64,000 nt of DNA from a virus. The notes beneath the pieces are model-generated. The model had not been told where the DNA came from. It ran no database searches and saw only the letters and a list, made by a program, of their open reading frames with translations. Numbering within the stretch: position 1 is the first letter of the stretch; every line of letters starts with the position of its first letter. Location of the stretch: the IMG/VR virus record IMGVR_UViG_3300025610_000001; one strand, written 5' to 3'. Positions 8,495 through 34,171 of the stretch are shown piece after piece. The translations under genes and the position numbers were made by a program.

Positions 8495-8905
8495 ATGAAC
8501 TGGTTTGAAGTATTGAAAAAAACAATGAACGCTTTAGAGTTCATTGAATATTTTCAAGAAAAGTTGGGAGGAAAACCAACTTATCCTAGTACTGCTAGTT
8601 TAAGAATACCTGAGAATAAACTCACAAGACCTATCGTTTACAAATTAGATTATCCAAATGGCTACATTAAAGTAACGATGGGTAAAAAAGGAGAAAAGCA
8701 CGTTAATGTAAATGGCGTAGTTGTGGCAAATGTTTTTAACCTAAAGGATGCAGTAGAAGAAGTAGAAGAGGCCGTTGGCTCAGATACCTTTGAAAAGAAA
8801 GCAGGTGGAGTATCATTTGGTGGTCATGGAACAAATCCAGAACTATTCAATATAAAATACGGAGGTGGAAAAGGTGGCAAAAAACGTAAGAAAGAAGACG
8901 AGTAA
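8495..8905 (+). CDS. W-tag protein (MNWFEVLK...), 136 aa, G/K-rich C-terminus
   Basis: Track ORF with AGGTGATTCT SD. Confidence 0.75.
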   Translation: MNWFEVLKKTMNALEFIEYFQEKLGGKPTYPSTASLRIPENKLTRPIVYKLDYPNGYIKVTMGKKGEKHVNVNGVVVANVFNLKDAVEEVEEAVGSDTFEKKAGGVSFGGHGTNPELFNIKYGGGKGGKKRKKEDE

Positions 8906-9956
8906 ATATAATAAACAGTCTATTACGCAAACCTTTGAAGGTTCTGATTTTCAAAAAGATTACAATGATTGGGAAAATCATTGTGATAGTATTGACAAAG
9001 ATGAGTTACAAGTTCAAAATGGAACGCTTTTGGACTTTTTAGTTCAACACGTTGATGAAGCAAGAGATGGCACATCAAGAAATGGTGCGAGATTGCCAAT
9101 CAAAGAAATACGTGAGATTTTAAATTCAGATATTATTACTAAGCCCGCTATTCAAAAAGTAAAAGATATGCGTAAGCATATTTCAGAAATGAAGAATAGC
9201 AAAGGTAAGGGTGGATTAGACCCAGCATTCATTTCATTTACAGATAGAGCCTATGATAAAAGAAACAAGTTTAGGTCAAAGCGAACTGTTTATGGACATT
9301 ACATGACTCAGAATTATGTTAATAGAAAGACGTTTAAGGATAAAAATTTCAAAGGTGAACCTGTTGATGGAGATTGGCTTACAGGAAAAAATCCTCCGCA
9401 TCTTGCATTATTCTCGGAAACAGAAGGAGATTACAGTAAGCCCTTTGGTTTGTTAAAAATTCTCGATAATGCCATTGATTCATTTAAAGAAATCACAGTT
9501 CAGCCTATTATTGATAGTATCACTAGAGCGAATGCTATGAAACTTGATAGTATTTACCCGATTGAAAAGTTCTTCGACAATGTTGTAAAAACAGATGGTT
9601 ATTGGAAAGCAAGCGGGGAATTGAAAACTTCTTCTGTTGCTTCTGAATTCAAAGCAACACAATTTGATGTAAAGCCAAGTGGTGCAAGAATCATACAAAG
9701 GCTTACAAATTTAGAAGATGTTGCGGGAAAAATTACTGCTTTTAAGATTAAAGCGACAATACCAATTAATTATTTGGTTGGTGAAGCACTTAAGAGAAAG
9801 AATAAGAAAAACGCACCTGCTGGAGAAAAGAACCGAGCATGGGCAAAATCAGGTTTTGATTACAGAAAGACTCGAAAAGAAGTATATGGCAAAGATACAA
9901 AGAGTCCAGACAAAAAGGTAATAAGTAAGTCATGGCAAGAAGTCATAAGGGCGTGA
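8865..9956 (+). CDS. Hypothetical protein, about 360 aa; ends with a W-motif relic SWQEVIRA
   Basis: Track ORF. No early ATG, so the start is probably GTG 8865 or GTG 8874 after GGAGGTG. Overlaps the previous gene by about 40 nt. Confidence 0.65.
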   Translation: MEKVAKNVRKKTSKYNKQSITQTFEGSDFQKDYNDWENHCDSIDKDELQVQNGTLLDFLVQHVDEARDGTSRNGARLPIKEIREILNSDIITKPAIQKVKDMRKHISEMKNSKGKGGLDPAFISFTDRAYDKRNKFRSKRTVYGHYMTQNYVNRKTFKDKNFKGEPVDGDWLTGKNPPHLALFSETEGDYSKPFGLLKILDNAIDSFKEITVQPIIDSITRANAMKLDSIYPIEKFFDNVVKTDGYWKASGELKTSSVASEFKATQFDVKPSGARIIQRLTNLEDVAGKITAFKIKATIPINYLVGEALKRKNKKNAPAGEKNRAWAKSGFDYRKTRKEVYGKDTKSPDKKVISKSWQEVIRA

Positions 9957-11065: not shown

Positions 11066-11722
11066 ATGGTTACTCGTAAGCGTTGTGGTTTTTGCCAACA
11101 TGAAAATAGGGAAGAACTTGAATCCTTGTTAGAAACAGGGCAAGCAAGTTGTGATGCCCTAGATTTGCAGAATGATTGGAGAAGTGGAACTTCCTCCCAA
11201 CATCAAAGAAATCACATGGGGAACTATGAAATGGCTTCTAATCCTCGTTGTGTGCTATGCACAGACCCGATGAGAAAACACTATGAGATTGCGCTTTCGG
11301 AAGGTAATATCACAAGTGAAGCAGTTTCTGAGGCTCTAAACGTGTCGAAAGAACAGGTGCAACGGCACATGAAGCACCACTTGTCGCCATTGGTACAGAA
11401 ATCTGCGGCCTCCTTGATAGCGAAAAAGGAGGTAAATGAAGTTGATTTGTTATCAGCGAATGTTCAGCGATTAGATATGAAATTAGATGATGTATTCGCT
11501 ATGGATGATTTAGACCCAAAGGTGATTGATAGTCTCACCAAACTCGCTAGAGAGATTCGTGAATCATTAAAGTACCTTATGGAGTTTAAAGGCAAATTGG
11601 TTCATAAAAGACAAGATACAGTTATTTTCGCACAGATGCAAATTGTTCAAGAAGTGCTTGCACAGAACAATCCTGAGATTTGGCTTGACATTAAAAAAGA
11701 AATGCAGGAGAGATTACAATGA
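11066..11722 (+). CDS. Zinc-ribbon plus helix-turn-helix-like protein, 218 aa; candidate small terminase or regulator
   Basis: CGFC...C and C..C pairs. Segment ALNVSKEQVQRHMKHH. No W-tag. Codon usage is visibly less A/T-biased than the neighbours. Confidence 0.35.
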   Translation: MVTRKRCGFCQHENREELESLLETGQASCDALDLQNDWRSGTSSQHQRNHMGNYEMASNPRCVLCTDPMRKHYEIALSEGNITSEAVSEALNVSKEQVQRHMKHHLSPLVQKSAASLIAKKEVNEVDLLSANVQRLDMKLDDVFAMDDLDPKVIDSLTKLAREIRESLKYLMEFKGKLVHKRQDTVIFAQMQIVQEVLAQNNPEIWLDIKKEMQERLQ

Positions 11723-16846: not shown

Positions 16847-17464
16847 ATGGTAGAAAAGTATTCTAAAGATGACATTGAATTTAAAGAAATGTCAGAAGAT
16901 GAAGCAGTTGCTACATTCGTTAAAGATGGCTATGATAAATATGTTAAAAGAAGCGTAAGATATGGGAGTAATCTTTCTCCAGATTCAGAATGGGCAAAAA
17001 GCCCAGCAAAAATGTTTGTTGCTTTTTATGAAGATAAACCAGTTGGTGTCATGGGATTTTCAGAATACAAGGGAGTTCTTCTAGGTGCAGGTATTCATAT
17101 TCGTGAAGATGAAAGAAAAAAAGGCTTATTTGGAATTTTAGTAGATAAAATTCTTTCTGAGAAAGGAAGTAAGACTCTTTACATTAACGTAGCAAAAGAA
17201 GGATTAGGTGCTGCATTTCGGAAAAAGGGGTTTAAAGATATGAAAAAGGATGAACTCCCTCAAGACATACAAGAAGACCTTCAGGGAACTAAGTATTCAG
17301 ACCAAGTTCAAAAGTGGATGAAATTAAAGGCTAAAGATATGGCAGAAGACAAGCCTATGCCACAAATTACTACTCGTATAAAAGGAAAAACAGAAAAGAC
17401 AAAGGATAGAACCTATTCTGGTAAAAACTTCCCCGAATGGAAAAAGATTCTTAGGGGTGATTAA
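16847..17464 (+). CDS. GNAT-like acetyltransferase, 205 aa; ends with a W-motif relic EWKKILRGD
   Basis: The segment GVMGF...GIHIREDERKKGLFGILVDKIL resembles GNAT motif A (R-x-x-G-x-G/A). Confidence 0.45.
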   Translation: MVEKYSKDDIEFKEMSEDEAVATFVKDGYDKYVKRSVRYGSNLSPDSEWAKSPAKMFVAFYEDKPVGVMGFSEYKGVLLGAGIHIREDERKKGLFGILVDKILSEKGSKTLYINVAKEGLGAAFRKKGFKDMKKDELPQDIQEDLQGTKYSDQVQKWMKLKAKDMAEDKPMPQITTRIKGKTEKTKDRTYSGKNFPEWKKILRGD

Positions 17465-18278: not shown

Positions 18279-19709
18279 ATGGAAATAGAAGAATTTAATC
18301 TAGAACATCAAATGGATATGGAGTTATCAAAGAACTCCTTTCCATATTTTTTCCAACACGTTCTAGGTTTTGACTTTCCAACATACATACAAGAATGGTA
18401 TGGCTTGATGAATGATACACAAAGAACTGTTATTATTTGTAGCCGTGACCACGGAAAATCTGTATTTATGCATTCATGGGTTGTTTGGAATTTAGTGTTT
18501 AGACCTCCGCCATATCAAATGCTTTACATCTCATCTAACCAAAAACAGACAATGGTTCACATGAGAGATATTGATAAGATGTTTCAGCACCCATTACTTA
18601 AAAAATTCAAACCCTCTAGAGGTTGGGCTATTGGAAACATTACATTAACAAACGGTAATCAAATTCTTGAGCGTTCCGTTGGTTCACAGATTCGTGGTTT
18701 GCACCCACAAGAAATTATTATTGACGACCCCTTGAAAGAATTTAGCGTAAGCGGTATTCAAAAGGTTACAGACTGGTTTTACGGGGATATGATTCCTACT
18801 CTTCACCATACTGCATCTTTGAGAGTTATCGGAACTCCGTTCAGTTATACGGATATTTACCGACAACTTGAAGAAAATGCCGCATATACTGTTAGAACCT
18901 ATCCTTGTTTAAATGCTCTCAATGAACCCCTTTGGCCTGACCGTTGGGACTATGATGCTTTAATGTCAAGAAAGGCTGAAATTGGTTCACTTAAATTTAC
19001 AAGAGAATATATGTGTGTTCCTATTTCAACTGGTACTTCTCTCTTTAATCCAGAATATTTAGACCTTGCAAAGAATAAGAACTTAGTTTTGAAACCTAGT
19101 AGAAGAGAAGGATATAAGTATTATGTGGGAGTTGACCCAGCAATTTCAACAGATGGCGACTATAACGTAATTACTGTATTAGAAGTTGATGAAGATGACA
19201 ATAAAAACATTGTATATATTGACCGTTCTAAAAACGTAGAGTTTAGAGAAAACATCAATAAAGTTAAACTTATTGGTAAAATATTCAATCCAGAAGTAAT
19301 CCTTTTTGAAACAAATACATTCGCAAAGTCATTTACTCAGGAACTTCGCAACGTCGCAGATTTAAATGTTCATGACTTTAACACTACTCGAAAGAAAAAA
19401 GAAGAAATTATCTTAAATTTGCAAATGACCTTAGAAAACCAAAAGATGAATTTTCCTTATGGTAATGAAGAAAGTCGAAGAGTTACTTCTGCTTTGGTAG
19501 AAGAACTGTCTATGTTTGCTATTACAGAACGTGGAAGATTTGAGGGAATCGGGGCGCACGACGACATGGTGATGAGCCTAGCACTAGCCAATTCAGCGAC
19601 GTTTCAGATGACGGATAACTTCATACTCTTAGATGACATGGAGATATTCGGGAGTTCTAAACCGTCTAACAATCGAGTTAAAACACCTTTCTTGGGGTTG
19701 AATTTTTAA
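18279..19709 (+). CDS. terL: Terminase large subunit
   Basis: Walker A-like CSRDHGKS and Walker B EIIIDDP. Nuclease-domain signatures VGVDPAISTDGDYNV and GAHDDMVMSLALA. Confidence 0.9.
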   Translation: MEIEEFNLEHQMDMELSKNSFPYFFQHVLGFDFPTYIQEWYGLMNDTQRTVIICSRDHGKSVFMHSWVVWNLVFRPPPYQMLYISSNQKQTMVHMRDIDKMFQHPLLKKFKPSRGWAIGNITLTNGNQILERSVGSQIRGLHPQEIIIDDPLKEFSVSGIQKVTDWFYGDMIPTLHHTASLRVIGTPFSYTDIYRQLEENAAYTVRTYPCLNALNEPLWPDRWDYDALMSRKAEIGSLKFTREYMCVPISTGTSLFNPEYLDLAKNKNLVLKPSRREGYKYYVGVDPAISTDGDYNVITVLEVDEDDNKNIVYIDRSKNVEFRENINKVKLIGKIFNPEVILFETNTFAKSFTQELRNVADLNVHDFNTTRKKKEEIILNLQMTLENQKMNFPYGNEESRRVTSALVEELSMFAITERGRFEGIGAHDDMVMSLALANSATFQMTDNFILLDDMEIFGSSKPSNNRVKTPFLGLNF

Positions 19710-20035
19710 TGTGGGAAGATATTCTTAAAAGAAAAAAATCTTACACTGGTAAGTTAAAAGACCTTGTTAATGAAGTTTATACTGGTAAAATAGTGGGTGC
19801 TGATTTTAAAAAGGTAAAACAACTCTTAGCAGATGAAGACTTCGATATTAGATTTCACGTTGAGTTACAAGTAAAGCGTGGAGAATTTGTTCACTTTTTT
19901 ACATTTGCAGCGAGAACTTTTATGGATTTCTTGACAGGATTATCAACAACTATTGTAGGCATGAAGATACCATCTTTGGGTAGAGAATTCAATAAAAATA
20001 GAGATATTATCAGAATATATTCAGATGACGTTTAG
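19709..20035 (+). CDS. W-tag protein (MWEDILKR...), 108 aa
   Basis: Track ORF with TAATG overlap to terL. Confidence 0.75.
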   Translation: MWEDILKRKKSYTGKLKDLVNEVYTGKIVGADFKKVKQLLADEDFDIRFHVELQVKRGEFVHFFTFAARTFMDFLTGLSTTIVGMKIPSLGREFNKNRDIIRIYSDDV

Positions 20036-20043
20036 GTGATATT

Positions 20044-21414
20044 ATGGCAACAGCAGAAGAAATGAGAGAGGCTTCCGATAAATTACAGGAACTTGCTAGA
20101 ATTTCTGAAGAAGAAGAGGGTTTAAAGGAAGAACTCTCAGAAACGATAGGTGATGATATTAAACTATCCTTTCTAAGTACAGGCCACGTTTTATCAGAAT
20201 ATGAAGAAATTCAACAAATCTCAAAAAATCTAAATATGAATCTAACTGATGCAAGAAAACAATTAACTTATCCTAACGAATATTCTATTGATGGTCAATC
20301 AATTCCAGACTTAGTAAAGAAAATGCGTTTGGCTCGAAGAGAACTAAAAGGAGAACAGAAAGATAAAATGTCAAAGGCAATTGACAATATCATTGATGCT
20401 TATTCAGACCATGTTATGAAGTGTATTGATTCTATTCATTGGCTTAAGCCATATAAATATCCATTACTCAAAATGAACTTTAATGAAAAGCATTTGAGAA
20501 AAATGGAAAAAATGAAATCATTAGAAGAAAGAAGAAGCATTGTAGATACTCTTTGCAAGTTCTGGGAAAAGGATTTACAAATACAAGACATGGCATATTC
20601 TGAAGAATATGCAAAAATTTCAAAAGAAATGAAAATAACTAAAAAACAATTTAGAGATACTATCGCTAAAATTAATGTTCAAAAAATTACGAAGAGTAAA
20701 AGAGAACTTGTTCAAGAATTCGTTTTAAAATCTATTTGTGAGAATAGAGGTATAGGAGCAAAAAGAATACATGATATGATGCCTAATAATCTTTACAAGC
20801 ATACTAATTCAAATATGATTTCAAAAATGGTTAGAAGCATGGATGTTATCAATGACAACGGTTCTTATTACAAAGCACCGTCATTAATGAAGAAAAACAT
20901 TTGGGCTTATTGTGCTGCATTTATTGATTCAGATGGATATATTACATTAGACCGCAACATGAATCCTAGAGTCGGAATGGTTGCTACGGGCCAAAGAGGT
21001 AGAGTATTTATGGAAGAAATGCACAAGTCTATTGGTTTTGGTCGTATGCATCTTGACCAGAAATCACCACAAAATACTCGATTAATTAATCGTTTAAATT
21101 TCTATTCACAAGATGACGTTACAAATATTTTAACAAAGTGCTTGCCTCATTTCAGATTAAAGAAGGGTAATGCTAATTTATTGCTCGAACTTATTCGCAT
21201 GAAGAAATCATATAAGAAAGCCGATTGGTATAAAGACCGTTGCGATGAAATTTTCAAGTTAATGAAATGGGAGAACCATAAAGACCATGTTGGTTTTGAT
21301 TGGGCTAAAGAAAATATTTACTTAGATGATATTGCAAAGTTACAAGGTAATTGTAAAATGAGTCTTATGGATGAATTGGAGAATGTCGGTGGTATTGTTC
21401 TTAAGGAGGTTTAA
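20044..21414 (+). CDS. LAGLIDADG-domain protein (single motif) with a long N-terminal extension, 456 aa
   Basis: WAYCAAFIDSDGYITLDRN matches a LAGLIDADG motif and is followed by a typical core. The N-terminal 290 aa are unassigned. Confidence 0.6.
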   Translation: MATAEEMREASDKLQELARISEEEEGLKEELSETIGDDIKLSFLSTGHVLSEYEEIQQISKNLNMNLTDARKQLTYPNEYSIDGQSIPDLVKKMRLARRELKGEQKDKMSKAIDNIIDAYSDHVMKCIDSIHWLKPYKYPLLKMNFNEKHLRKMEKMKSLEERRSIVDTLCKFWEKDLQIQDMAYSEEYAKISKEMKITKKQFRDTIAKINVQKITKSKRELVQEFVLKSICENRGIGAKRIHDMMPNNLYKHTNSNMISKMVRSMDVINDNGSYYKAPSLMKKNIWAYCAAFIDSDGYITLDRNMNPRVGMVATGQRGRVFMEEMHKSIGFGRMHLDQKSPQNTRLINRLNFYSQDDVTNILTKCLPHFRLKKGNANLLLELIRMKKSYKKADWYKDRCDEIFKLMKWENHKDHVGFDWAKENIYLDDIAKLQGNCKMSLMDELENVGGIVLKEV

Positions 21415-23227: not shown

Positions 23228-24865
23228 ATGGTGGAAGAGAAACGAAGATTCTCCATTACTAACTTGTTTAGACGTTCTACTCCCAAACCTGCCGATAGGC
23301 AAATTTTTAACATTGGTATTCAAGAAAGAAGAAACCAACAAATGATGACAGCACCAATCATTTATTCAATGGTGCAACAGTCTGTTATTGTGAGAACTTG
23401 TGTTACTCAATTAAAGCAAGAAATCTTCAGAAGAGGATATGTTTGGGAAAAGGCATATGAAGCACTTTGTCAAAGTTGTGGTAAAAAACATAAAAAACCT
23501 GTTACAGAATGTTCTCGATGTAATTCAACAGAATTGAGATTACCAGACCCAAAACAATTAGAATACATAGAAAAATTCTTAGATAGATACGTTAATAAAT
23601 CTGAACAATTATTTATTGATGTTCTTCGAGAACTTGAAGATGATTTGAATACAATGGATGATGCATACATTGTAATGGTAAAGGAATATTTCTTAGACGG
23701 AAACGGTAAAATAAGAATGCATCGAGTTAAAGAATTATATCGGGGCGACCCAGTAACTATGTATATTTATGCTGATGAGAATGGCGTAAGAGGAACTAAA
23801 GGTTTTACTTGCGTAAATCATCGTTCAATTATTGCCACTGAGCCACATGAAATGTGTGAAGCCTGTAATAGTAATTTATTTCCTATTCATTATGTAAATA
23901 GAGTTGGAGGGGAAGACCAATACTTCTTAGAGGGAGAAGTTCTTCACTTTAGCAAATACAGTCCATCTCGACTTTACGGATTATCTCCGATTTTAACTCT
24001 CTATAATCATATTATGACATTGATTGCTATGGAGAATTACGTCAATTCATCTTATACAAAGAGCAGAATGCCGAGAGGTTTGTTAGCAGTACAGACAAGA
24101 AACATGGAGTCTATGCGCTCTTTTTGGAGGTCTGTTAAAGAAAAGATGGAACAAGACCCGCACTTCATTCCTGTCATGGGAATCGAGGCTGAGAACGGTA
24201 AAGGGGCAGTTGAATGGATTAAGTTCATGGATAGTCTGAAAGAGATGGACTACGTTTCAGTGAAGGATGATTTGAGAGATAGAATTTCAGCATTCTATGG
24301 TGTCAGTAAAGTATTTATGGCTGATAATACTACCAGTGGTGGATTAAACAACGAAGGTATGCAAATTCTTGTAACAAATAGAGCAGTTCAAATGGCTCAA
24401 AATGTCTACAATAATTATGTATTCCCGTTTTTGGTCAAACAATTCGGTATTACTGATTGGGAATTAAAACTACCACCAAGCGAAGAAGAAGATGAAATTG
24501 CAGTATTGCGTAAAAGAGAAATTGAAGTTAATATTGCGGCATCAATTAAGAATTTAGGATTTGAAATAGATATGGATGAAGATGGAAACTTTACCTATAC
24601 TAAACCAGAACCCGAAGAACCTGAACAAACAGAAGAAGGTGAAGATGTGGAGAAAGACCCATTAGCAGGTTCTAATTTAGACCAAAGAGATATTGATGAA
24701 CAAAATAGACAATTCGCAGAAGGTGGAAGTAAACCTCAAGAAAATCCACCTGCTACAAGAAATAAGCCATCAATGAGTACTGGCCCAGATAAAAGATTTC
24801 AAGGATTACCTGAAGATGCAGGTAATCAAAACGTAGATAGAAGAAGTGAAAGGAGAGTTGGTTAA
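23228..24865 (+). CDS. Portal protein with two Cys/His clusters
   Basis: 545 aa. Conserved-looking portal core (MENYVNSSYTKSRMPRGLL...ISAFYGVSKVFMAD) and an acidic C-terminus. Lies downstream of terL. Confidence 0.8.
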   Translation: MVEEKRRFSITNLFRRSTPKPADRQIFNIGIQERRNQQMMTAPIIYSMVQQSVIVRTCVTQLKQEIFRRGYVWEKAYEALCQSCGKKHKKPVTECSRCNSTELRLPDPKQLEYIEKFLDRYVNKSEQLFIDVLRELEDDLNTMDDAYIVMVKEYFLDGNGKIRMHRVKELYRGDPVTMYIYADENGVRGTKGFTCVNHRSIIATEPHEMCEACNSNLFPIHYVNRVGGEDQYFLEGEVLHFSKYSPSRLYGLSPILTLYNHIMTLIAMENYVNSSYTKSRMPRGLLAVQTRNMESMRSFWRSVKEKMEQDPHFIPVMGIEAENGKGAVEWIKFMDSLKEMDYVSVKDDLRDRISAFYGVSKVFMADNTTSGGLNNEGMQILVTNRAVQMAQNVYNNYVFPFLVKQFGITDWELKLPPSEEEDEIAVLRKREIEVNIAASIKNLGFEIDMDEDGNFTYTKPEPEEPEQTEEGEDVEKDPLAGSNLDQRDIDEQNRQFAEGGSKPQENPPATRNKPSMSTGPDKRFQGLPEDAGNQNVDRRSERRVG

Positions 24866-25104: not shown

Positions 25105-27930
25105 GTGTCTTATTCTGAAATTCTTAGAAAGAGAACAGATGATGACCAGCGACAGCAAGATGAGAGAATGTTAGACCAAGCCTCTAAAGAACAACAAGAT
25201 AAAGTTAAAACTGAATTTAGAGATATAAAAAATAAATATGCTAGATTACAAGAATTATATAATGATATTGAGCCAGTTTTAAAAACTATTAATTTTACTT
25301 TGGGAAGAAGAAACAAAATTCAAAGTTTTTATCGTAATATAGAAATTCAAGATGTAATGTCAAAAAAATCATTTGATTATCTTTTGTCTGAAATATTTAA
25401 TATGAAGGATAAAGATGCAGACTATTATCAAAAACAATTGTCTAATTCTATTGGTAGATTTGCTATGAGTACTCCCGATGGCAGTTTTACTCTTGATGGT
25501 ACTGATGAATCTACTGTTAGTGTAGGAGAATTAGGTAAAAACTTAAAAGAATTAGCAAACAGTGAAATTGATGGAGTACCTTTTGAAAAAGCAATTAGTT
25601 TTATTTATAGAAAAACTTTTGGTCAGCAACTAATTAGAAGTAGAGAAGAGTTGCGTGAAAAAAGACAGAATTTAAAAGATATGAAAAAACTTGTTGGTGA
25701 AATTGGAAAAACAAGAAGAACAGGTAGAAGATTACCTAAAGATTTTAAAGATGTTGATATAAGAGCAACTAAAGGCGATACATATGCTCATAAAACAGAA
25801 AAAGACAAAGATGGCAGACCCAAAGAAATTTCTGAAAAAGAATATAAAAATTTAAATGAAGAACAACAACAAGAATACAAGAGAAAGGATTATCTTGAAG
25901 GAGATGTTGCAGAATTAGATGATAAGTTTGCAATATCTACTGCTAAGAAATTAGTAGAACAAATTGAAAAGAACTTTGCTCCTACGACTTACAAAGGTTT
26001 TGAAGAATTTAACCTTCTTGGAGCATTACCAGAAAATCCTGAAGAATACATCAGAAAGAAGTTTAACAATCTAAGAGACACTTTAGAGTCGGAAATTCAA
26101 AGTTTTTTATTAAATACAATAGAAACATCCAAAACAATCAAAAAAGAAAGAAAAGTTAAAATTTTAACATATCTTTCTACATTCACTGATAGATTTAATA
26201 TTAGTGAAATCGAAACACAAAGTGTAGATAAAATAGTAGATAAAATAAACTTTGATGATTTAATAGTACAAGCCAAGAAAAATAGACAAGAGTGGTTAAA
26301 ACCCAAAAAAAGCGGAAAGGTTTCCAAAGTCATTAAGCAATATGAAAAAGTAGTAAATTCAATAGTTGATAAAAAAATAATGCCGACTAACGCAGACCTA
26401 TTAAGCGATAAAATAAGAAAAAGTAATGAAGAGTCTTCTGATGTGTTAATAAAAGCAATTGCTAAAGTATTTGAAGAAATACCAAAAAGAAACGAACTAG
26501 AAAAAATTCTTGGAGGTAAAAGTGCTTCACCTCTTGAAAAAGCAACAAGTTTAGTTACAAAGTCGAAAAAGAATTTTGGTAGATTTATGCTTATGTATAA
26601 TGCTTTTAATTCTTCGGATATTATAGATTATTATGAAAACTTTCAAGAACAGGTAGATGAACTTCTTTCTAAAATAAAAGAAGAAATTGAACTGTTTCCT
26701 TCTGGAAAGGAACAAACAGATGCTCTTGTTTCTGTATTAGATGAAGACTTTATAGAAGATTTTTTGAATACAATAAGAGATAATGCGGTGGAATCCATAG
26801 AAGAAGTATTAAGACTTGAAAAGGAAAGATACCTCAACAAAGATAAATATTCTCCCAGTGAATTAAGAAAGAACATTTCTTATTTAAGAGAAAACATAGA
26901 AGATGATGGCATCAAAAAACAATTAGATGATATTCTTGCTTCTGAGGTATTTAGAATGTTTTTATCATCTAGAGTAAAATCACCTGATTCCAAAGGTAGA
27001 AGAGAACAAATTAAAGAGTCATTTGAAAGGACAATTTCTGAATACAAGAAATATGAACTTTCTCAAGATGAAAAAATTAAAAAGGCTAGGAAACTTCTAA
27101 AAGATATGTTTTCTCAACCTAATGATGATGACCCTGAATTTAAACAAAACTCAGAAGTTGCGATTAAAGTTAGAGAATACGAAGAAAAATTCATTGGAGT
27201 ATTAGAAGCATACAATGAATTAATTGTAAACAACGATGTTGCTGAGATTGCTACTGTTAAAGATACACTTAAGCAACTAAGTATTTTTGTGAAAGACCCT
27301 AGAGAAATTGAACTTAAACCATTAAATGAAAAAATGTTCACCTATGATAAAGAAAAGGTCTTAAGAAAAATTATTACAAAAATTAATGCAATTACTGATA
27401 CTACTGGATTAGTTGGAAGAAAATCATATAGAACAAGTGAAACTGTTTCAGAAAAGAGAATCAATCCAAAAAAGAGATACAACTATTCTCTTAATTTCTC
27501 ACAAAAAGTATTCGATACAATGTTCGACAAAGACAACTTTGAAGAACAAATAATTAATCATTTAGAAGGCAAAGTATTCACAACAGGAATATTTCCATCA
27601 CTTAAGCCAACTGCTGATGCTTTAGTTAGACAAGTTAAGGAATTAGTAGAATATGACATTCAAGAAAGAATCCCGTTAGGCCCACTAAGAGAAGGAGAGG
27701 AACGAGATTTAAATTTAAATGAACAAATTAAGGGTGTAATTCGTAGGGCAATCGAAAGAACCAAAGAAGGAATTACAAAATTAGAAAATAAAAATACTGA
27801 TGATATAGAAAGGCTATCAAAGGGAGAAGGTATAGAAAGAGCAATAAGAAACGTTATCGCCTCAAGAAATAACCTTATCTCTCAATTTGTAAAAGACATC
27901 GAAGAACTAGAAAAATACATAGGAGAATGA
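25105..27930 (+). CDS. Large K/E-rich orphan protein, 941 aa, with a Tyr-variant tag (MSYSEILRKR)
   Basis: Track ORF with a GTG start. Confidence 0.8.
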   Translation: MSYSEILRKRTDDDQRQQDERMLDQASKEQQDKVKTEFRDIKNKYARLQELYNDIEPVLKTINFTLGRRNKIQSFYRNIEIQDVMSKKSFDYLLSEIFNMKDKDADYYQKQLSNSIGRFAMSTPDGSFTLDGTDESTVSVGELGKNLKELANSEIDGVPFEKAISFIYRKTFGQQLIRSREELREKRQNLKDMKKLVGEIGKTRRTGRRLPKDFKDVDIRATKGDTYAHKTEKDKDGRPKEISEKEYKNLNEEQQQEYKRKDYLEGDVAELDDKFAISTAKKLVEQIEKNFAPTTYKGFEEFNLLGALPENPEEYIRKKFNNLRDTLESEIQSFLLNTIETSKTIKKERKVKILTYLSTFTDRFNISEIETQSVDKIVDKINFDDLIVQAKKNRQEWLKPKKSGKVSKVIKQYEKVVNSIVDKKIMPTNADLLSDKIRKSNEESSDVLIKAIAKVFEEIPKRNELEKILGGKSASPLEKATSLVTKSKKNFGRFMLMYNAFNSSDIIDYYENFQEQVDELLSKIKEEIELFPSGKEQTDALVSVLDEDFIEDFLNTIRDNAVESIEEVLRLEKERYLNKDKYSPSELRKNISYLRENIEDDGIKKQLDDILASEVFRMFLSSRVKSPDSKGRREQIKESFERTISEYKKYELSQDEKIKKARKLLKDMFSQPNDDDPEFKQNSEVAIKVREYEEKFIGVLEAYNELIVNNDVAEIATVKDTLKQLSIFVKDPREIELKPLNEKMFTYDKEKVLRKIITKINAITDTTGLVGRKSYRTSETVSEKRINPKKRYNYSLNFSQKVFDTMFDKDNFEEQIINHLEGKVFTTGIFPSLKPTADALVRQVKELVEYDIQERIPLGPLREGEERDLNLNEQIKGVIRRAIERTKEGITKLENKNTDDIERLSKGEGIERAIRNVIASRNNLISQFVKDIEELEKYIGE

Positions 27931-28298
27931 ATAAAATGACATGGGATTTTTATGAAACTGGAGAGGAATTTATCCTCAAAGAAAAAGAAGTAAAGAAAGA
28001 ACTTTTGGACACATTAAGCCCAAAAGAAAAAAAGCGCATTAAGAAGATTTTACAGTCAGCACAGCCGACTGAATTTTTTGGTCAAGACTTTACGAAGTTA
28101 GGTGAGTTAGTCGGTGAACTTAAATCATTAAACTTCATTAAATCAGATGACAAACTAAAGAAGAAAATGAAAGGCATGGATGAGCGCAATGTAGATATAG
28201 TAGCCTCCGCATCCAAACTTCGTAAGGAGTATGAATTGCTCTATCGTCAATTGCGAGATTTAATCTATCCTAAAGGTAAAAAGGAGGAAAAGAAATGA
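27927..28298 (+). CDS. Hypothetical protein, 123 aa
   Basis: Track ORF. An alternative start at ATG 27936 gives MTWDFYE. Confidence 0.7.
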   Translation: MNKMTWDFYETGEEFILKEKEVKKELLDTLSPKEKKRIKKILQSAQPTEFFGQDFTKLGELVGELKSLNFIKSDDKLKKKMKGMDERNVDIVASASKLRKEYELLYRQLRDLIYPKGKKEEKK

Positions 28299-28537
28299 CA
28301 GAAGAAAACAAGGTAAGTAACGACATTTTGGCTATATTGAAAGCCCTAACAGATAAAATTGAATCATTAGAGAGAACAGTTTATGCAAAGGATAATTTGC
28401 TAATGAAATCTGGTCTTGTTGTTTCTGAAAGCCCTACTCCAACAATGGATAATAAGATTGCTTCACCCGTTGGTGATGTAGCAAACATGGAATGGTCTGA
28501 AATTCACAAAATGGTAGAAAAGGTAGGAGGTCAATAA
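28295..28537 (+). CDS. Scaffold-like small protein, 80 aa, with the C-terminal peptide MEWSEIHKMV
   Basis: The helical N-terminal half and the C-terminal peptide are shared with the protease-scaffold protein. Confidence 0.5.
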   Translation: MTEENKVSNDILAILKALTDKIESLERTVYAKDNLLMKSGLVVSESPTPTMDNKIASPVGDVANMEWSEIHKMVEKVGGQ

Positions 28538-28538
28538 T

Positions 28539-29069
28539 ATGCCCGAAAGAGTAACAAAAGAAGAAAGAATGGTTACTTTAGCCATTGAGAAAGCAAGAAA
28601 GACAATTGAAACATTAAGGGAATCAACTCAAGTTATTCCCGTTGATACAGAAGTAGAAGTTCAAAAGATTAAGCGACCTAAAGTTCAAGATGCTTCAAAG
28701 ATTACAAATCAAACCCAAGACAAAGAAGGTTATGGTTTAGCAGGTGAATCTTTAAAAAAGGCAAAATTTCAAGGGCCACCTAGAAAAAACATAGGTAGTA
28801 AGTATCAAGATACAGTATTGACAATAAAACTAAAAGATACTGTGCAAAACATTAATAGCATATTAAAGGGGTCAGAATCTATTAATAACATTGATGCTTT
28901 GAAGAGAATAATTAAACGCGCTCAGAAAGAATTAGATAAAATTGATGAAGTTCTCTTAGATGCGGCAAAATATGGAAAAGGCAACCCCCGAACCGTTACT
29001 GATAGAACAGATAGTAAAAATTTATCAATAGCAGGTGCTAAATACGACAAAAATAGAAGTTTTGAGTGA
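28539..29069 (+). CDS. Hypothetical protein, 176 aa
   Basis: Track ORF. Confidence 0.7.
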   Translation: MPERVTKEERMVTLAIEKARKTIETLRESTQVIPVDTEVEVQKIKRPKVQDASKITNQTQDKEGYGLAGESLKKAKFQGPPRKNIGSKYQDTVLTIKLKDTVQNINSILKGSESINNIDALKRIIKRAQKELDKIDEVLLDAAKYGKGNPRTVTDRTDSKNLSIAGAKYDKNRSFE

Positions 29070-29075
29070 TAATTC

Positions 29076-31589
29076 ATGCCTCTTCTCATTGAAAAGGATA
29101 AGGACTCTTCTGAAAAGATTATACGTCTTTTCGAGAAAACAAGAGTCGCTTATCTATCTGCTCGCACCGACCCCAAAGAATATGGGAATAGGTGGCGTAA
29201 AGCAATTGATGACATTAGAGAACTCTATGAAGAACTCAATGAATTTAGCAAGGAATTAAAACAATTCATACAAGAAGATGAATTAGAAAACAAAGAAGCA
29301 AAAGACCCAACAAGTAATATCGCTGAAAAGATTTACAACGGTATTAAAGAAATGCGTTTTGGTTCTGAATTAATTGAAGACCCTTTTGCTAAAAACTTCA
29401 AAGGCGATGTTCTTGAAGCATTACTTGAATCTCCAGAAACTATGATTAAATTTGTCCACTATGCTCTAAGGGCTGACAATAAATCCCTACCAAAAGAGAT
29501 TTGGAGCATTAAAGATATGCAACCCGACACGATAACTGAGGGTCTAACGGGACTTGACCTAGATGAAGACGATATTGCTCTCTACATTATCGAACAGTAT
29601 GGGGATGAAAAAGACTCAAAGAAGGTTGAAAGCAAAGTTAAATCAGCCTTAGAGATGTTAGAAACTTTATTCTTCTCCAAGTATAGTGAAGAAGAATTCG
29701 ATGAACTGAAAGACATTGAAGGTATTGAGAAGGCTGAAAAATCAGAAGACGAAAAGGCTGAATCAGACTTCCTTATTCCAAACAAACCTATGTATCGAAT
29801 CTTTGAGATTGACGATATGAAGGAATTAAAAGGTTTTAGTGGAGAATATATTATACAAGAAAAATACGATGGTATGAGAATACAGTTACATAAGATAGAT
29901 GATAACGTAAAGGTATTCTCATACAATGGTAACAATATTTCAGATAAGTGCCAAGAACAAATCAAAGAATTAAAGAAAAAGAAATACGGAGATTGCATTC
30001 TTGATGCAGAATTGATTCTATTTGATGGAGATGAAGCCCTACATCGGGCCGATACAATTGCACATATCTTTAAAGGTAAATATCCTGATGCAAAGGTAAG
30101 AGCGCACGTTTTTGATATTATGCGACACAACGAACAAAATCTTGTTGAAGAAGAATTAAAAGACAGAATCACTATTCTATTCAACAATTATGCATCACAT
30201 TCCACAGAATCAATAGAGTTCCCTTCAAAGAAAGATACTCGAACTGCTGATAATTTAAAAGATGTTGAAGAATATTCAAAAGAAATTATGGAGATGCCGA
30301 CATCAGAAGGAGTAGTAATTAAAGACTCTACATCAACATATTTTATAGGAACAAAAAAGAATCCTAAGTGGATTAAATGGAAGAAGTTTGTTGATTTAGA
30401 TTTAGTTGTTCTTGATAAGAAAACTACAAAATCCAATCTCAATTCTTATACTTTAGGCGCAGGGCCAGCAGAAGGAGAAGGTAAATTCTTTACTGAAATA
30501 GAAGGAAAAACCTACATGAATGTTGGAAAGGCTCTCAATACAAAAATAGAAGTAGACGTTGGAGATATTATTCGAGTTAAGGTTGATGAAGTCAAAAAGA
30601 ATGGAGATAGATATACTTTGTTTTCTGCGAAGGTTATTGAAGTTCCTGAAGTTGAATATCCAGATAAACTTGTAACATTAGAGATGCTTTCACAAGATAC
30701 TAAGAAGTCATTAAATTATGACGTAAAGGCATTAGAAAAAGGAATTAGAATCACAGACCACATACACGGTGAAGCAGATATTATTGTAAAATCAGATTTA
30801 GATGGTTTTACAATTTATGGTTTTGATGAAAGCAATCTAATGTCTAAGAATGCTATAATTGATATGGATATGTGGAAGTCAAAAGTCGAAGAGATTATGA
30901 AGACTAAGCAATCTAAATTGACTCAAATTGTCTTCAATTACCTAAAAAACATGGGTTCAAAAGAACCAAAAGAAATTCACAATTTCCTAACAAAGAAACA
31001 TAGTTCAGTTTATGAGGATATTCTTGAAGGAAAAATGTCAAGAGTCAAAGATTGGTTTGAAAATAGAGATGGCATTGGCTATGATACAAAAACCAAAAAA
31101 CTCTTTGCTGAAGAAGATAAAATTATCAAAGAACCTGAATTACTAAAAGCATATAAAACTCCAGAAAAATATAGAGAAGGGGAGTTTAAAGTATATCTTA
31201 GAAAAGATGATAACCTAAACATTGCCATGAAACTAGATGACGAAACAATCAACTGGTTTGTAAAATTAGAAAGTGATGATAATATATTTGATTTGTTTGG
31301 TAAAGCAGGTAAATATCCAGCAGAAGTAGCAAAGACTTCTTCAAGAGAAAAGGTAGTTGATTCTGGTTCTGTGAAATTAGGTGTCCAAAAAGAAGGCTAT
31401 CATGAATATTTCTTAAATGGTAATAAATTCCAAACTAAAATTCACTTTAGAGTTGTAGAGAGTAAAGGTGATAAAATGTGGATTGCTTGGACTGGCTACA
31501 AACAAGAACCTGCTGACGACGATGAGGACAAGGGATTGTGGAATATCTATGAAGATAGGTATAACTCCTTGACCATACCGACTGAATAA
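29076..31589 (+). CDS. ATP-dependent DNA ligase core with large N- and C-terminal extensions, 837 aa
   Basis: Motif I EKYDGMR (KxDG), motif III ILDAELILF, motif IV EGVVIKD, motif V KWIKWKK. Confidence 0.8.
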   Translation: MPLLIEKDKDSSEKIIRLFEKTRVAYLSARTDPKEYGNRWRKAIDDIRELYEELNEFSKELKQFIQEDELENKEAKDPTSNIAEKIYNGIKEMRFGSELIEDPFAKNFKGDVLEALLESPETMIKFVHYALRADNKSLPKEIWSIKDMQPDTITEGLTGLDLDEDDIALYIIEQYGDEKDSKKVESKVKSALEMLETLFFSKYSEEEFDELKDIEGIEKAEKSEDEKAESDFLIPNKPMYRIFEIDDMKELKGFSGEYIIQEKYDGMRIQLHKIDDNVKVFSYNGNNISDKCQEQIKELKKKKYGDCILDAELILFDGDEALHRADTIAHIFKGKYPDAKVRAHVFDIMRHNEQNLVEEELKDRITILFNNYASHSTESIEFPSKKDTRTADNLKDVEEYSKEIMEMPTSEGVVIKDSTSTYFIGTKKNPKWIKWKKFVDLDLVVLDKKTTKSNLNSYTLGAGPAEGEGKFFTEIEGKTYMNVGKALNTKIEVDVGDIIRVKVDEVKKNGDRYTLFSAKVIEVPEVEYPDKLVTLEMLSQDTKKSLNYDVKALEKGIRITDHIHGEADIIVKSDLDGFTIYGFDESNLMSKNAIIDMDMWKSKVEEIMKTKQSKLTQIVFNYLKNMGSKEPKEIHNFLTKKHSSVYEDILEGKMSRVKDWFENRDGIGYDTKTKKLFAEEDKIIKEPELLKAYKTPEKYREGEFKVYLRKDDNLNIAMKLDDETINWFVKLESDDNIFDLFGKAGKYPAEVAKTSSREKVVDSGSVKLGVQKEGYHEYFLNGNKFQTKIHFRVVESKGDKMWIAWTGYKQEPADDDEDKGLWNIYEDRYNSLTIPTE

Positions 31590-31599
31590 TGCGTGGGTA

Positions 31600-31607
31600 T
31601 TATATAC
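31600..31607 (+). promoter_or_regulatory. TATA box TTATATAC 19 nt upstream of the protease ORF start
   Basis: Same box and spacer as the left-arm cassettes. The flanking ATACTCAAA is shared with P7. Confidence 0.5.
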
Positions 31608-31626
31608 TCAAATCAGATAAACTGGT

Positions 31627-32835
31627 TTGAACGACATGAGCATCAGTATTAGTGCATCCAGAAATGATGATTTTCTCATCATTAAAAGCGATGAACTGAT
31701 GATTGGTGGTTATGCTTCAATTGAAATTGTTGATAAGCAAAATGACTTAATCACGCTTAAAGCATTAAACGAAGCAGTTCAAAAATTTATGTCAAAGTCT
31801 GAATATAGAAATGTAATGACAAATCATTCAAATGTTCAAGTCGGAGAGGTAGTAGATTCATATAGAGATAAAACAGGGAGATTGTGGAAAACTGAAGTTG
31901 ATGACGTTGGTTTCTTTGTTGTAATTAAATTAAGAGATGATATAGAAAAAGCCAAAGAAGTTGGTAGAAACATTCGCAAAGGGTCATTAAGGTCTTTTAG
32001 CATTGGTGGACAGGCATTAAAAAAGTCTAAGAAAAACCACGACGAATTAGGAGAATATAACGAAATTAGTAAGTTAGAACTCCATGAAGTAACAATATGC
32101 GAAAAAGGAATTAATCCCGAAGCGAGATTCGATATTCTAAAACAGGATAAAGGAAGTGAAAAAATGTCTGATAAACTAGAAAAAGCATTGGAAGAATTAG
32201 ACGCATTGATGGAAGAAGTCAATACGTTGAGAAAGGAAGAAGAAGAAGAAGGAAAGGAAGCATTAGAAATGGCTGACCCTAAAACGGAAGAAATGGAAAT
32301 GTCTGATGAAAGTGAAGAAGAAATGGAATCTTCTGAATATGCTGATTTTGAAAGCGCAGATAAGGCATACCTCCGCACATTAGATGGTGCTGGTAATCAA
32401 ATCGGTGAACCTGCTGATAGAATCGTCATTAACAATGGTCGCCCGACATCTTCGGATATGCCTGTTGTTAAGGCATTCGGAAACAATGAGTTAGAAACTC
32501 TTGATTTGTCCGTTGGCAACATTGAGAAGGCTTACGAGGCTTTCCGACAAGAACAACTTGAAAAGTTGGCTTATGATAACTTGCAAAAGTCTTTTGAAGA
32601 CCGATTTGCAAGAGAAAAGAATGTAAGAGAGAATACTCTCGCAAAGTCGCAATATGACGCACAAAGCGAAATTGCTTCTCTAAAGGATGAATTTACAGCA
32701 TTGAGAAAGTCCTTAACTGCTGAAAAGGAAACAATCCTAAAGGCTCAAGAAGAGGCTAAGGTTGAACTCCCAAGTATTGATGATTTGGCCGAAATGGATT
32801 GGTCAGACATTCACAAGATGGTAGGAGGTTATTAA
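31627..32835 (+). CDS. HK97-type prohead protease fused to an acidic coiled-coil scaffold-like C-terminal half
   Basis: N-terminal GGYAS...DKQND...H...SFSIGG...HEVTICEKGINPEA pattern. E-rich C-terminal half ending MDWSDIHKMVGGY. The start is TTG 31627 or ATG 31636. Confidence 0.75.
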   Translation: MNDMSISISASRNDDFLIIKSDELMIGGYASIEIVDKQNDLITLKALNEAVQKFMSKSEYRNVMTNHSNVQVGEVVDSYRDKTGRLWKTEVDDVGFFVVIKLRDDIEKAKEVGRNIRKGSLRSFSIGGQALKKSKKNHDELGEYNEISKLELHEVTICEKGINPEARFDILKQDKGSEKMSDKLEKALEELDALMEEVNTLRKEEEEEGKEALEMADPKTEEMEMSDESEEEMESSEYADFESADKAYLRTLDGAGNQIGEPADRIVINNGRPTSSDMPVVKAFGNNELETLDLSVGNIEKAYEAFRQEQLEKLAYDNLQKSFEDRFAREKNVRENTLAKSQYDAQSEIASLKDEFTALRKSLTAEKETILKAQEEAKVELPSIDDLAEMDWSDIHKMVGGY

Positions 32836-32836
32836 G

Positions 32837-34171
32837 ATGACTGGATATATTAACACAATTGCAGATTTAGAAGCACAAACATACGGAACAGGCACTTTTG
32901 CTGGCAATTCTTTGCTTAAGCAAGCAGGAATGGTTGGTGGCATTCATACAGGACATGATGGTGGCCCATCTTTTAGCGGTTCAGCCGTTTCAGATGTTTC
33001 AGCCCTATACAACGTCGTTTACGGACAAAAAGTTTGGTCTATGTTGAATAGAGAAGTAAATGCTCTTTCAATGATTTCAAAGCGACCATACTCTTCTAGC
33101 GGTTGGAGAGTTCTAAAGTCAAGACCTGCGGGTGGAAGCGGTAATCTATTTACTGTTGATACTTCGGGAACTGCTTCTTTAGGAGAATTAGGTTCTGATG
33201 ACCCAAGAGCAGATTTAATTGGTGGTGTTCCTGAAAACGCTGCATTGTCTACATCAGCAGATGGTTTAGGCCCAATTGCACCAACATATGCTCAATTGAA
33301 CATGAGTCCAAAGGTTATTGCTCATCAATTCGATTTCAGCGAATTGGCTATGGAAATGGCTCAGATTGACGATGGAATTGGCGATATTAGAGCGCAAATG
33401 CGTGAAGATATGGGCAAGCACCACGCAGAAGTTCAAAACAAGATGTTAGTTATGCCTTTGGAACATTTCGGTGAATCTGCGGCTATGCCTAACATTACTA
33501 ACAACTATACCTCATTAAACAAGGTTATCTCTTCAAGAGCAGAATTGTTGGCTATTGATGGTGGAGTTATCGCTACTGATACTACTTCTGCTTCTAACGC
33601 ATTAGGACAGATTTACGGTAGTGAGAGATTTACTGCCGCATCTTTCCTAGATTCTGAAGTTGATTTTGGTTCGGGATATGCTTCTGGAAATGTTCGTTCT
33701 TTGACTCTAACTCGTCTTAATGACATGATTAGAAACCTAAGACTTGCAGGTGGTTCACCAAAGGTTATTTTAACTGGATATGATACCATTCAAGCACTTG
33801 CTGACCTATTGCAAAGCCAAGAAAGATTTATGGACAGAAAGGAGATTGTTCCTACTGTAAATGGTGTTCGTGGAACAAAGGGTCAAGAAGTTGGATTTAG
33901 AGTTGCAACATACTATGATATTCCATTGATTCCTGTTAAGGACATGGCTACAACGGGTAATGCTTCAACAAAGTTATCTGACCTATTATTCCTCGATACT
34001 GACCATCTATGGCTTTCTGTTATGAAGCCAACTCAATACTTTGAGGATGGTATTGCGAATGGAAACCCATTTGGTGTTGGAACTCTCGGAAACCGAGCAT
34101 TGTATCGAACAATTGGTGAAGTCGGATGTTCCTTCTTTAAGGGTCAAGGTAAGATTACTAACATTCAATGA
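32837..34171 (+). CDS. Major capsid protein
   Basis: 444 aa, directly after the protease-scaffold gene. Less A/T-biased codon usage, typical of a highly expressed gene. No motif-level proof. Confidence 0.7.
   Translation: MTGYINTIADLEAQTYGTGTFAGNSLLKQAGMVGGIHTGHDGGPSFSGSAVSDVSALYNVVYGQKVWSMLNREVNALSMISKRPYSSSGWRVLKSRPAGGSGNLFTVDTSGTASLGELGSDDPRADLIGGVPENAALSTSADGLGPIAPTYAQLNMSPKVIAHQFDFSELAMEMAQIDDGIGDIRAQMREDMGKHHAEVQNKMLVMPLEHFGESAAMPNITNNYTSLNKVISSRAELLAIDGGVIATDTTSASNALGQIYGSERFTAASFLDSEVDFGSGYASGNVRSLTLTRLNDMIRNLRLAGGSPKVILTGYDTIQALADLLQSQERFMDRKEIVPTVNGVRGTKGQEVGFRVATYYDIPLIPVKDMATTGNASTKLSDLLFLDTDHLWLSVMKPTQYFEDGIANGNPFGVGTLGNRALYRTIGEVGCSFFKGQGKITNIQ

Follow-up and report, generated by a model that had tools for sequence, protein, structure and literature searches.

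The DNA analysed here, a 64-kb stretch (G+C 33%) of the virus record IMGVR_UViG_3300025610_000001 of IMG/VR, hereafter the window, encodes in its head module two otherwise unrelated proteins that end in the same ten-residue peptide, M[ED]WS[ED]IHKMV. One is a small protein of 80 amino acids (aa), the other a fusion of prohead protease and scaffold. The pair is old and under purifying selection at the level of the peptide and, by analogy with known scaffolding systems, we consider it moderately probable that the peptide serves as a common docking handle inside the procapsid, used by both the scaffold and the small protein.

In a six-frame translation of the window the motif occurs exactly twice, at 28487..28516 and 32794..32823, both times at a C-terminus and within eight residues of the stop codon. 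The first copy closes the small protein (28295..28537, plus strand), which ends in ...GDVANMEWSEIHKMVEKVGGQ, and the second closes the protease-scaffold (31627..32835, plus strand), which ends in ...DDLAEMDWSDIHKMVGGY; both C-termini and positions agree with an initial annotation of this DNA, which had reported that the two proteins end in the same peptide. The likeness extends over a module of 19 residues, SPVGDVANMEWSEIHKMVE in the small protein (28463..28519, plus strand) and PSIDDLAEMDWSDIHKMVG in the scaffold (32770..32826, plus strand), and a profile-profile comparison with hhalign (E 3.7e-10) aligns the two families over those 19 columns only. Once the module is cut off, profile-profile comparison detects no homology between the small protein and the protease-scaffold (best E 0.035, probability 1.5%), in keeping with the earlier remark that the remainder of the two proteins is not obviously homologous. 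Homology beyond the tail had been suggested by a tblastn alignment of 70 residues at about 28% identity, and was rejected because the profile-profile comparison without the module gave nothing.

At the DNA level the two copies are identical at 37 of 51 bases and differ at synonymous sites. In both proteins the motif is followed by VGG, encoded by GTAGGAGGT, a stretch that serves the next gene as Shine-Dalgarno sequence: on the plus strand, AGGAGGT at 28525..28531 belongs to a downstream gene for a 176-aa protein (ATG 28539), and AGGAGGT at 32823..32829 to the capsid gene (ATG 32837). Since the VGG codons are at the same time these ribosome-binding sites, this part of the tail likeness probably reflects a nucleotide-level constraint and not peptide function, and would lie outside the peptide signal.

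The VGG tail might be taken to mean that the likeness as a whole is an artefact, arisen by chance, by recent duplication or gene conversion, or as a translated nucleotide signal such as a ribosome-binding site or a promoter. However, the ten-residue core lies upstream of the Shine-Dalgarno sequence, persists in clades with different tails (NNI, GGI, RGD), and is part of the alignment with the hhalign E-value given above. Moreover, among related loci its ten codons occur in 22 (small protein) and 30 (scaffold) distinct DNA versions, which between them use all four Val codons, five Ser codons and both codons each of His, Lys and Asp, while the residues are fixed. Such free synonymous change under fixed residues indicates selection on the peptide, not on the DNA. 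The synonymous-site analysis thus rules out recent duplication, gene conversion or a nucleotide signal as the source, the VGG tail excepted, and an artefactual origin is essentially refuted.

The pair is conserved well beyond the window. In a close set of 80 IMG/VR loci, whose proteases are 71-100% identical, the motif is kept in both proteins while the linker of the small protein varies. Across three clades (proteases 44-100% identical), 97 loci have at least 7.5 kb of sequence upstream of the protease gene, and all but one of them (96) encode there a small partner whose tail matches. The conservation among homologs on which the initial annotation had made its proposal depend is therefore there, and what it had described as a peptide shared between a scaffold and a separate small helical head-module protein is a conserved terminal module under selection. 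In one of these clades (P0130), whose protease and capsid protein are 44% and 46% identical to those of the window, the partner has 106-118 aa, is encoded about 6.5 kb upstream, and is homologous over an LLxKxG-V..TP block and the tail (hhalign E 1.4e-10); its tails read ...MSWEEIHEMA... in the small protein and ...MSWEEVHQLA... in the scaffold. Many more small-protein/scaffold pairs with the motif are found in a further set (P0126). Finally, among 1.84 billion representative proteins searched, many divergent S78 protease-scaffold fusions, at 33-59% identity, end in tails of the form [KN]-M-[SD]-W-x-[DE]-[IV]-[HN]-x-[LM], a spread that fits an old functional element of the scaffold.

The two tails also change together. 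Motif positions 2, 4, 8, 9 and 10 vary jointly in the two carriers, giving small-protein/scaffold combinations such as IHKMV/IHKMV, IDELV/VNELV, INQII/IHNIV and IHEMA/VHQLA. Within genomes the tails are identical at a mean of 6.4 of ten positions versus 5.2 in shuffled pairs, and none of 5000 shuffles reaches 6.4, by a statistic that is blind to ancestry.

The small protein is encoded in the head module of the virus itself, between portal and protease, and its gene has an AGGAGG Shine-Dalgarno sequence 8 nt upstream. Its family comprises 130 homologous clusters of about 57-100 aa, mostly 71-88 aa, none of them annotated, and neither a Pfam nor a PHROG family was found for it. Conservation is concentrated in two parts, the first being a helix followed by a DNLLMKSG-VV-SPTP block and the second the C-terminal motif. 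In an alignment of 47 sequences the most conserved block comprises residues 33-49 (DNLLMKSGLVVSESPTP, 28391..28441, plus strand), with N34, L36, M37, K38, G40, V42, P47 and P49 invariant; a distant-clade small protein keeps it as LL[RK]KAG-V..TP. This block is possibly a second interaction site. From the same 47-sequence alignment, AlphaFold2 predicts an N-terminal helix at residues 3-32 (28301..28390, plus strand; block predicted local distance difference test, pLDDT, of 80-86) with heptad-spaced L15/L18/I22/L25/V29, a disordered stretch at 39-60 (pLDDT <50 at 51-58), and a second helix at 67-78 that begins at the tryptophan of the motif. The N-terminal helix is a probable coiled-coil oligomerisation element: the family profile weakly matches GCN4 coiled coils among PDB sequences (E 0.008-0.05). 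GCN4-type coiled coils were the only matches of that profile search, and a Foldseek search with the model gave none.

The protease-scaffold has 402 aa when read from TTG 31627, with a possible ATG start at 31636. Its S78 prohead serine protease domain (residues 25-173; 31699..32145, plus strand) matches Peptidase_S78 (PF04586, E 1.6e-10; 41.8 bits against a cut-off of 21) and also PHROG head maturation protease, and is followed by an acidic linker, a helical scaffold domain, a short Pro/Ser/Asp linker and the predicted C-terminal amphipathic helix M-D-W-S-D-I-H-K-M-V. An alignment of 155 scaffolds from three clades shows a conserved protease domain, a poorly conserved acidic middle and, in the tail, an invariant W and an H that is 80% conserved. 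A short conserved amphipathic helix at the end of a flexible linker, the arrangement of scaffolds that bind the capsid by a C-terminal helix, is thus present here, with the motif ending 4-7 residues before the stop codon and the helix of the small protein being predicted. Among solved structures we found no sequence match to the protease-scaffold or to the capsid protein, and when cultured phages were searched with divergent motif-bearing proteases, matches were confined to the protease domain.

A conserved methionine, Met180, marks the boundary between protease and scaffold. It could be an internal start, as an SD-like sequence, GGAAGTGA, precedes ATG 32164 (32152..32166, plus strand), and it is 82% conserved across the three clades amid poorly conserved neighbours. 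Relatives have scaffold-only proteins of 209-228 aa that start at Met180 (P0132, P0136, P0142, P0154), and protease-only proteins were also observed among them. These data may point to a scaffold gene nested as in lambda C/Nu3 or, in some lineages, to split genes.

The closest parallel to the small protein comes from a phage and its satellite. At the C-terminus of the 80alpha scaffold, and likewise of the 72-aa SaPI1 protein CpmB, 16 residues form a nearly identical helix-and-hook on the N-arm of the capsid protein, and CpmB carries an N-terminal dimerisation domain (PMC5644958). More generally, scaffold ends contact the N-arm helix in 80alpha, P22 and phi29 (PMC12749128). The 80-aa protein resembles CpmB in size (72 vs 80 aa), in its helix-linker-helix layout and in a tail shared with the main scaffold; like CpmB, it is a small protein, predicted to be helical, with a predicted N-terminal oligomerisation domain and a C-terminal module homologous to that of the scaffold. 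However, CpmB is the product of a satellite that hijacks the phage and reduces the size of its capsid, whereas the small protein belongs to the virus's own head module and is found in 96 of 97 loci. The motif is different as well, with a RIIK hook in CpmB and M-x-W-x-[DE]-I-H here, the main scaffold is here fused to the protease, and the host is archaeal. No sequence homology of the small protein to CpmB was found in Pfam, PHROG and PDB profile searches or with Foldseek.

By this analogy, the C-terminal helix would be the handle that tethers the scaffold, and with it the fused protease, to the inside of the procapsid during assembly. Its docking site would most probably be the conserved N-terminal region of the major capsid protein encoded by the next gene (32837..34171, plus strand), which is of the HK97/SU10 type (SU10_MCP E 8e-6; PHROG major head protein E 5e-22; tblastn matches to haloarchaeal virus capsid proteins). 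Residues 1-20 and 61-100 of this candidate receptor are among its most conserved segments across clades, which is compatible with a conserved docking site. Since the small protein bears the same C-terminal helix, it would occupy the docking site of the scaffold and thus be a second, virus-encoded internal core protein. It could act as an auxiliary scaffold or as a size or shape factor that shares scaffold sites or competes for them; alternatively, it could be an adaptor that uses its N-terminal part to carry another component into the head. As it is virus-encoded and almost universally conserved, we read it as an auxiliary factor or adaptor of this kind rather than a hijacker. It is from these comparisons that we infer the capsid protein as the partner, the entry of both proteins into the procapsid and such a role of the small protein there.

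Several observations weigh against a docking handle on the capsid protein. The confidence of the AlphaFold model is modest, with a mean pLDDT of 66 and about 61-67 in the C-terminal helix. Mutual information between the motif and the capsid protein is scattered over the whole capsid protein, in an analysis that has about 27 effective sequences and is confounded by phylogeny, and the co-variation statistic of the two tails ignores shared ancestry, so that occasional gene conversion would yield the same signal. The protease of the haloarchaeal virus HVTV-1 has no such tail, and the motif is hence not universal in this capsid lineage. Lastly, a related W core, described below, ends or begins about 20 other proteins, a GNAT-like enzyme among them, so that the receptor is possibly a general hub and not the capsid.

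The peptide might instead address another hub of the head: the portal, the 941-aa protein or the ligase-containing protein of the head module, or the scaffold core. The carriers do sit among head-module genes without an assigned role (those for proteins of 941, 123 and 176 aa and for an 837-aa ligase protein), and the fusion of a ligase-like region to the protease-scaffold in one related lineage (P0155) suggests a multi-protein core. There is also precedent in T4, where a targeting sequence directs proteins into the scaffolding core (PMC3012670). However, in the systems that have been resolved, 80alpha and, according to PMC12749128, P22, the C-terminal end of the scaffold contacts the N-arm of the capsid protein; moreover, the portal has only 12 sites, and the scaffold cannot serve as both ligand and receptor for its own tail. 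We therefore regard a hub of this sort as unlikely, and docking on the capsid protein remains the interpretation that we prefer.

Even less probable is a reading in which the S78 prohead protease recognises or cuts the peptide, so that both proteins are marked for removal at maturation. Both carriers are expected to be transient internal proteins, and in T4 the targeting sequence is indeed cut off by the prohead protease. Yet a cut 5-8 residues from the C-terminus would remove almost nothing, and there is no other exact copy of the motif in the capsid protein or in the window, although such proteases usually cut several substrates. In addition, the module is predicted to be helical and amphipathic, unlike an extended protease substrate.

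Recruitment of a protease and a scaffold by one and the same end, as we propose for the handle, has several precedents. The lambda proteins gpC and gpNu3 and the herpesvirus proteins UL26 and UL26.5 are pairs of a protease and an abundant scaffold that share their C-terminal capsid-binding end through in-frame nested translation. The conserved Met180 with its SD-like sequence may give a nested scaffold here in a similar way. In contrast to those pairs, the second carrier here is a separate, non-homologous gene 3.1 kb upstream, and the 80-aa protein does not form a nested pair with the protease-scaffold. The S78-family protease gp4 of HK97 is likewise said, in work of Duda, Oh and Hendrix from 2013, to enter the procapsid through a short C-terminal region, and the protease studied here resembles it in being an S78-family prohead protease with a putative short C-terminal tether. 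The partner in HK97, however, is a delta (scaffold) domain fused to the capsid protein. Here, in contrast, it is the protease that carries the scaffold, and nothing comparable to a long delta domain is present on the capsid protein.

The W core of the pair has a wider distribution at protein termini in the window. Most of the weak other matches of the 19-residue module profile are N-terminal peptides of the form M-x-W-x-[DE]-I-L-K. On a crude list of 83 open reading frames (ORFs) of the window, 17 ORFs have the pattern W-x-x-[ILVM]-[LIVHM]-[KR] in their first 12 residues and four in their last 16, and it is internal once, against shuffled expectations of 0.10, 0.10 and 1.4, respectively; with looser variants (MWKDEIIK, MYKDILK, and MSYSEILR on the 941-aa head protein) the total comes to about 25 carriers. 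Sixteen plus-strand ORFs start with M-(x)-W-x-[DEN..]-[IV]-[LI]-K, as in MSWKEILK, MGWKDILK and MWEDILK (starts at 5159, 5837, 6319, 7131, 8495, 9962, 10582, 11719, 17465, 19709, 21417, 22006, 22277, 22513, 22818 and 36860), with MSWKEILKFKRRF and MGWKDILKVLPP as examples, and looser variants start at 5577, 6102, 6649, 7540, 7688, 10245 and 27936. Five consecutive N-tagged ORFs lie directly upstream of the portal gene. GGTGAT or AGGAGG ribosome-binding sites precede most N-tag starts, and the codons of the tags show synonymous variation.

Three other readings of these N-tags were set aside. Family searches assign the tagged proteins to no family, and an all-against-all BLASTP comparison after trimming of the tags gave nothing below E 0.01, which excludes that they form a family of paralogues. 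An origin of I-L-K from a promoter or TATA box (ATTTTAAAA) was ruled out, since the tags draw on five Leu and three Ile codons and follow ribosome-binding sites. A reading as peptides that interact with proliferating cell nuclear antigen was dropped, as the spacing does not fit Q-x-x-h-x-x-a-a and no tag is found on the minus-strand genes at 58-64 kb.

The initial annotation had also suggested looking for a third carrier of the C-terminal peptide. A third exact copy does not exist in the window, but the looser core ends at least two further proteins, a GNAT-like protein of 205 aa (16847..17464, plus strand; ...PEWKKILRGD) and a protein of 363 aa (8865..9956, plus strand; ...KSWQEVIRA); a 218-aa protein (11066..11722, plus strand) ends in a looser version, ...IWLDIKKEMQERLQ. 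All three C-terminal W tails are kept in orthologs at 36-94% identity.

N-tag and C-terminal peptide, M-x-W-x-[DE]-I-L-K and M-[DES]-W-x-[DE]-I-H-K-M-V, share the skeleton M1-W3-acid5-I6 and differ consistently after it, since positions 7-8 of the N class are L-K throughout the clades and the C class has H-x-[ML]-[VA]. The proposal of two distinct addressing peptides made in the initial annotation is thus doubtful, the common skeleton speaking against it and the difference at positions 7-10 in its favour; by sequence, they are more aptly called two classes of a single terminal W motif. The P0130 clade has the C-terminal pair and no real N-tags nearby which, together with the distinct positions 7-10, indicates that the C-terminal pair stands alone. 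From this distribution we conclude that the C-terminal pair would be the ancestral system and the N-tags a related, lineage-specific class. A common origin of the two classes, or a common pocket, is suggested by the shared skeleton, and we put it forward only tentatively.

Could the C-terminal peptide be just a flavour of a genome-wide terminal motif, W-x-[DE]-[IV]-[LIH]-[KR], by which about 25 clients address a hub other than the capsid, such as a chaperone of virus or host, a regulator or a degradation factor? The strong terminal excess over shuffled sequences (17 N-terminal, four C-terminal, one internal) would be accounted for, as would the fact that the carriers are unrelated outside the tag and include a GNAT-like enzyme with a C-terminal tag kept in orthologs; magroviruses, to which we assign the window below, are moreover reported to have thermosome and clamp genes (PMC5434244). 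However, all tags of the window lie at 5.1-37.4 kb, on the strand and on the side of the head genes, with no tag at 37.5-57.7 kb, where the genes are probably tail genes, or among the minus-strand genes of the 58-64 kb region, and all 120 N-tags in 48 related loci are on the head-gene strand. The classes also differ consistently at positions 7-10 (LK vs H-x-[ML]-[VA]), the N-tag consensus stays put where the C-tag changes, and the P0130 clade retains the C-terminal pair in the absence of real N-tags nearby. These patterns make a general non-capsid hub improbable as an explanation of the pair.

The same tags can be combined with a docking handle in the procapsid, if a single pocket there reads a terminal M-x-W-x-[DE]-I helix on both peptide classes. 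We hold such a single addressing code to be rather doubtful. It would load the scaffold, the small core protein and, in some lineages, about 20 unrelated proteins and enzymes (the GNAT-like protein, perhaps the ligase), and the loaded proteins would enter the archaeal host with the DNA. An analogous system exists in T4, whose diverse internal proteins share only an N-terminal capsid targeting sequence that loads them into the prohead (PMC3012670). The likeness lies in the roughly 20 otherwise unrelated ORFs with N-terminal W-tags found here, some of them in a variable cassette of the head module. The differences are that the T4 sequence is another one (MKTYQEFIAE), that it targets the scaffold core, and that it is removed by a protease of an unrelated family. 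Encapsulin cargo-loading peptides, which are short, usually C-terminal and sometimes N-terminal, and dock inside an HK97-fold shell, offer a second comparison in that short terminal peptides occur on unrelated proteins. Encapsulins, however, are compartments of cells, have neither portal nor protease nor DNA, and use other consensus peptides.

The variable cassette was observed in relatives (L173-L239), closely related genomes among them, where zero to three different N-tagged ORFs of 60-190 aa lie directly upstream of the small C-tagged gene. It is located between the gene for the 941-aa protein and that for the small protein (in L173-L239, between a 109-aa gene and the small-protein gene), and its variability resembles that of the hypervariable internal-protein genes of T-even phages.

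The head genes of the window form a co-directional late block on the plus strand, in the order terminase, portal, proteins of 941, 123, 80 and 176 aa, ligase protein, protease-scaffold and capsid protein. The large terminase subunit is encoded at 18279..19709 (plus strand) and the portal, identified in Pfam and PHROG searches, at 23228..24865 (plus strand), and family matches likewise uphold the identities that the initial annotation had given to the protease and the capsid protein. The terminase gene is followed by an N-tagged ORF of 108 aa and then by the gene for a protein of 456 aa that weakly matches an HNH endonuclease (PHROG E 1.3e-4; the three genes at 18279..21414, plus strand), and no small terminase subunit was identified. 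An N-tagged 269-aa gene upstream of the terminase gene is missing in some relatives (L243, L245). Directly after the portal lies the gene for a 941-aa Lys/Glu-rich head-module protein (25105..27930, plus strand, GTG start), which begins with MSYSEILRKR, a Tyr variant of the W-tag. The 123-aa protein (27927..28298, plus strand) adjoins the gene for the small protein; its tag is degenerate or split in the window (MNKMTWDFYETGEEFILKEK), orthologs in other clades start with a clean M[ST]WQ[ET]ILKAS, and its C-terminus, LRK[DE]YE.LY.Q[LI]R..[IV]YPK, is strongly conserved. In four relatives (L162, L169-L171) the two genes look fused, since LRKDYE.LY...YPK, the conserved motif at the end of the 123-aa protein, there closes the homolog of the 941-aa protein.

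Between portal and protease the block also encodes the 837-aa protein (29076..31589, plus strand) that contains an ATP-dependent DNA ligase domain (PF01068, E 3e-29) and has a conserved C-terminal tail of its own, [LV]W.I.EDKY..L..P. In P0155 a region homologous to the C-terminal half of this ligase protein is fused to a W-tailed S78 protease-scaffold (BLASTP E 7e-14), and in the P0130 clade the adenylation region is found at the same position inside a protein of 1932-2143 aa (E 2e-14; L104:3514-9945). These fusions suggest that the ligase may be a physical part of the head core.

The virus itself can be placed from its genes. Magroviruses (Magrovirales) are viruses of Poseidoniales with genomes of about 90-100 kb and halovirus-like head genes. 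A DNA ligase inside the structural module is a reported trait of magrovirus groups A and B (PMC5434244). In cultured viruses, the capsid protein and protease of the window find their matches mainly in haloarchaeal tailed viruses, at 24-30% identity, with single weaker matches to a Methanofastidiosa-associated virus and a Roseobacter phage, and the close relatives of the window are marine metagenomic contigs of up to about 107 kb. On the strength of the ligase in the structural module, the haloarchaeal-virus-like head genes and the marine relatives, we assign the window to a magrovirus, a tailed virus of uncultured marine Poseidoniales archaea.

As these viruses and their hosts are uncultured, we know of no experimental work on head assembly in the tailed viruses of marine Poseidoniales. 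The motif is not mentioned in the magrovirus papers that we checked, and a full-text literature search for the peptide strings returned only frog dermaseptins (ALWKDILK...), which are unrelated. A shared capsid-binding end as such is familiar from lambda C/Nu3, herpesvirus UL26/UL26.5 and the HK97 protease tether. The principle that protease, scaffold and a further protein can share one such end is already established through 80alpha and CpmB (PMC5644958). What is new is a separate, non-homologous, virus-encoded small protein that carries the tail of the scaffold and is conserved across magrovirus clades, along with the motif itself, its setting in an archaeal virus and its link to a pervasive terminal W motif.

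A sharply defined short peptide on the scaffold and on a second core protein provides a concrete, testable handle on head assembly in these viruses. If the peptide indeed docks both proteins, the trick of CpmB, a small protein that borrows the tail of the scaffold, would not be only a satellite weapon, and could be conserved in a virus's own assembly, where the small protein perhaps serves the control of capsid size or shape in genomes of about 95 kb. The tag might also be reused as a portable signal for loading proteins into HK97-fold shells. If, in addition, the wider family of W-tags uses the same receptor, the virus would carry a large and fast-changing protein cargo, and a single addressing code of this kind would be an archaeal-virus counterpart of T4 targeting or of encapsulin loading, on a much larger scale.

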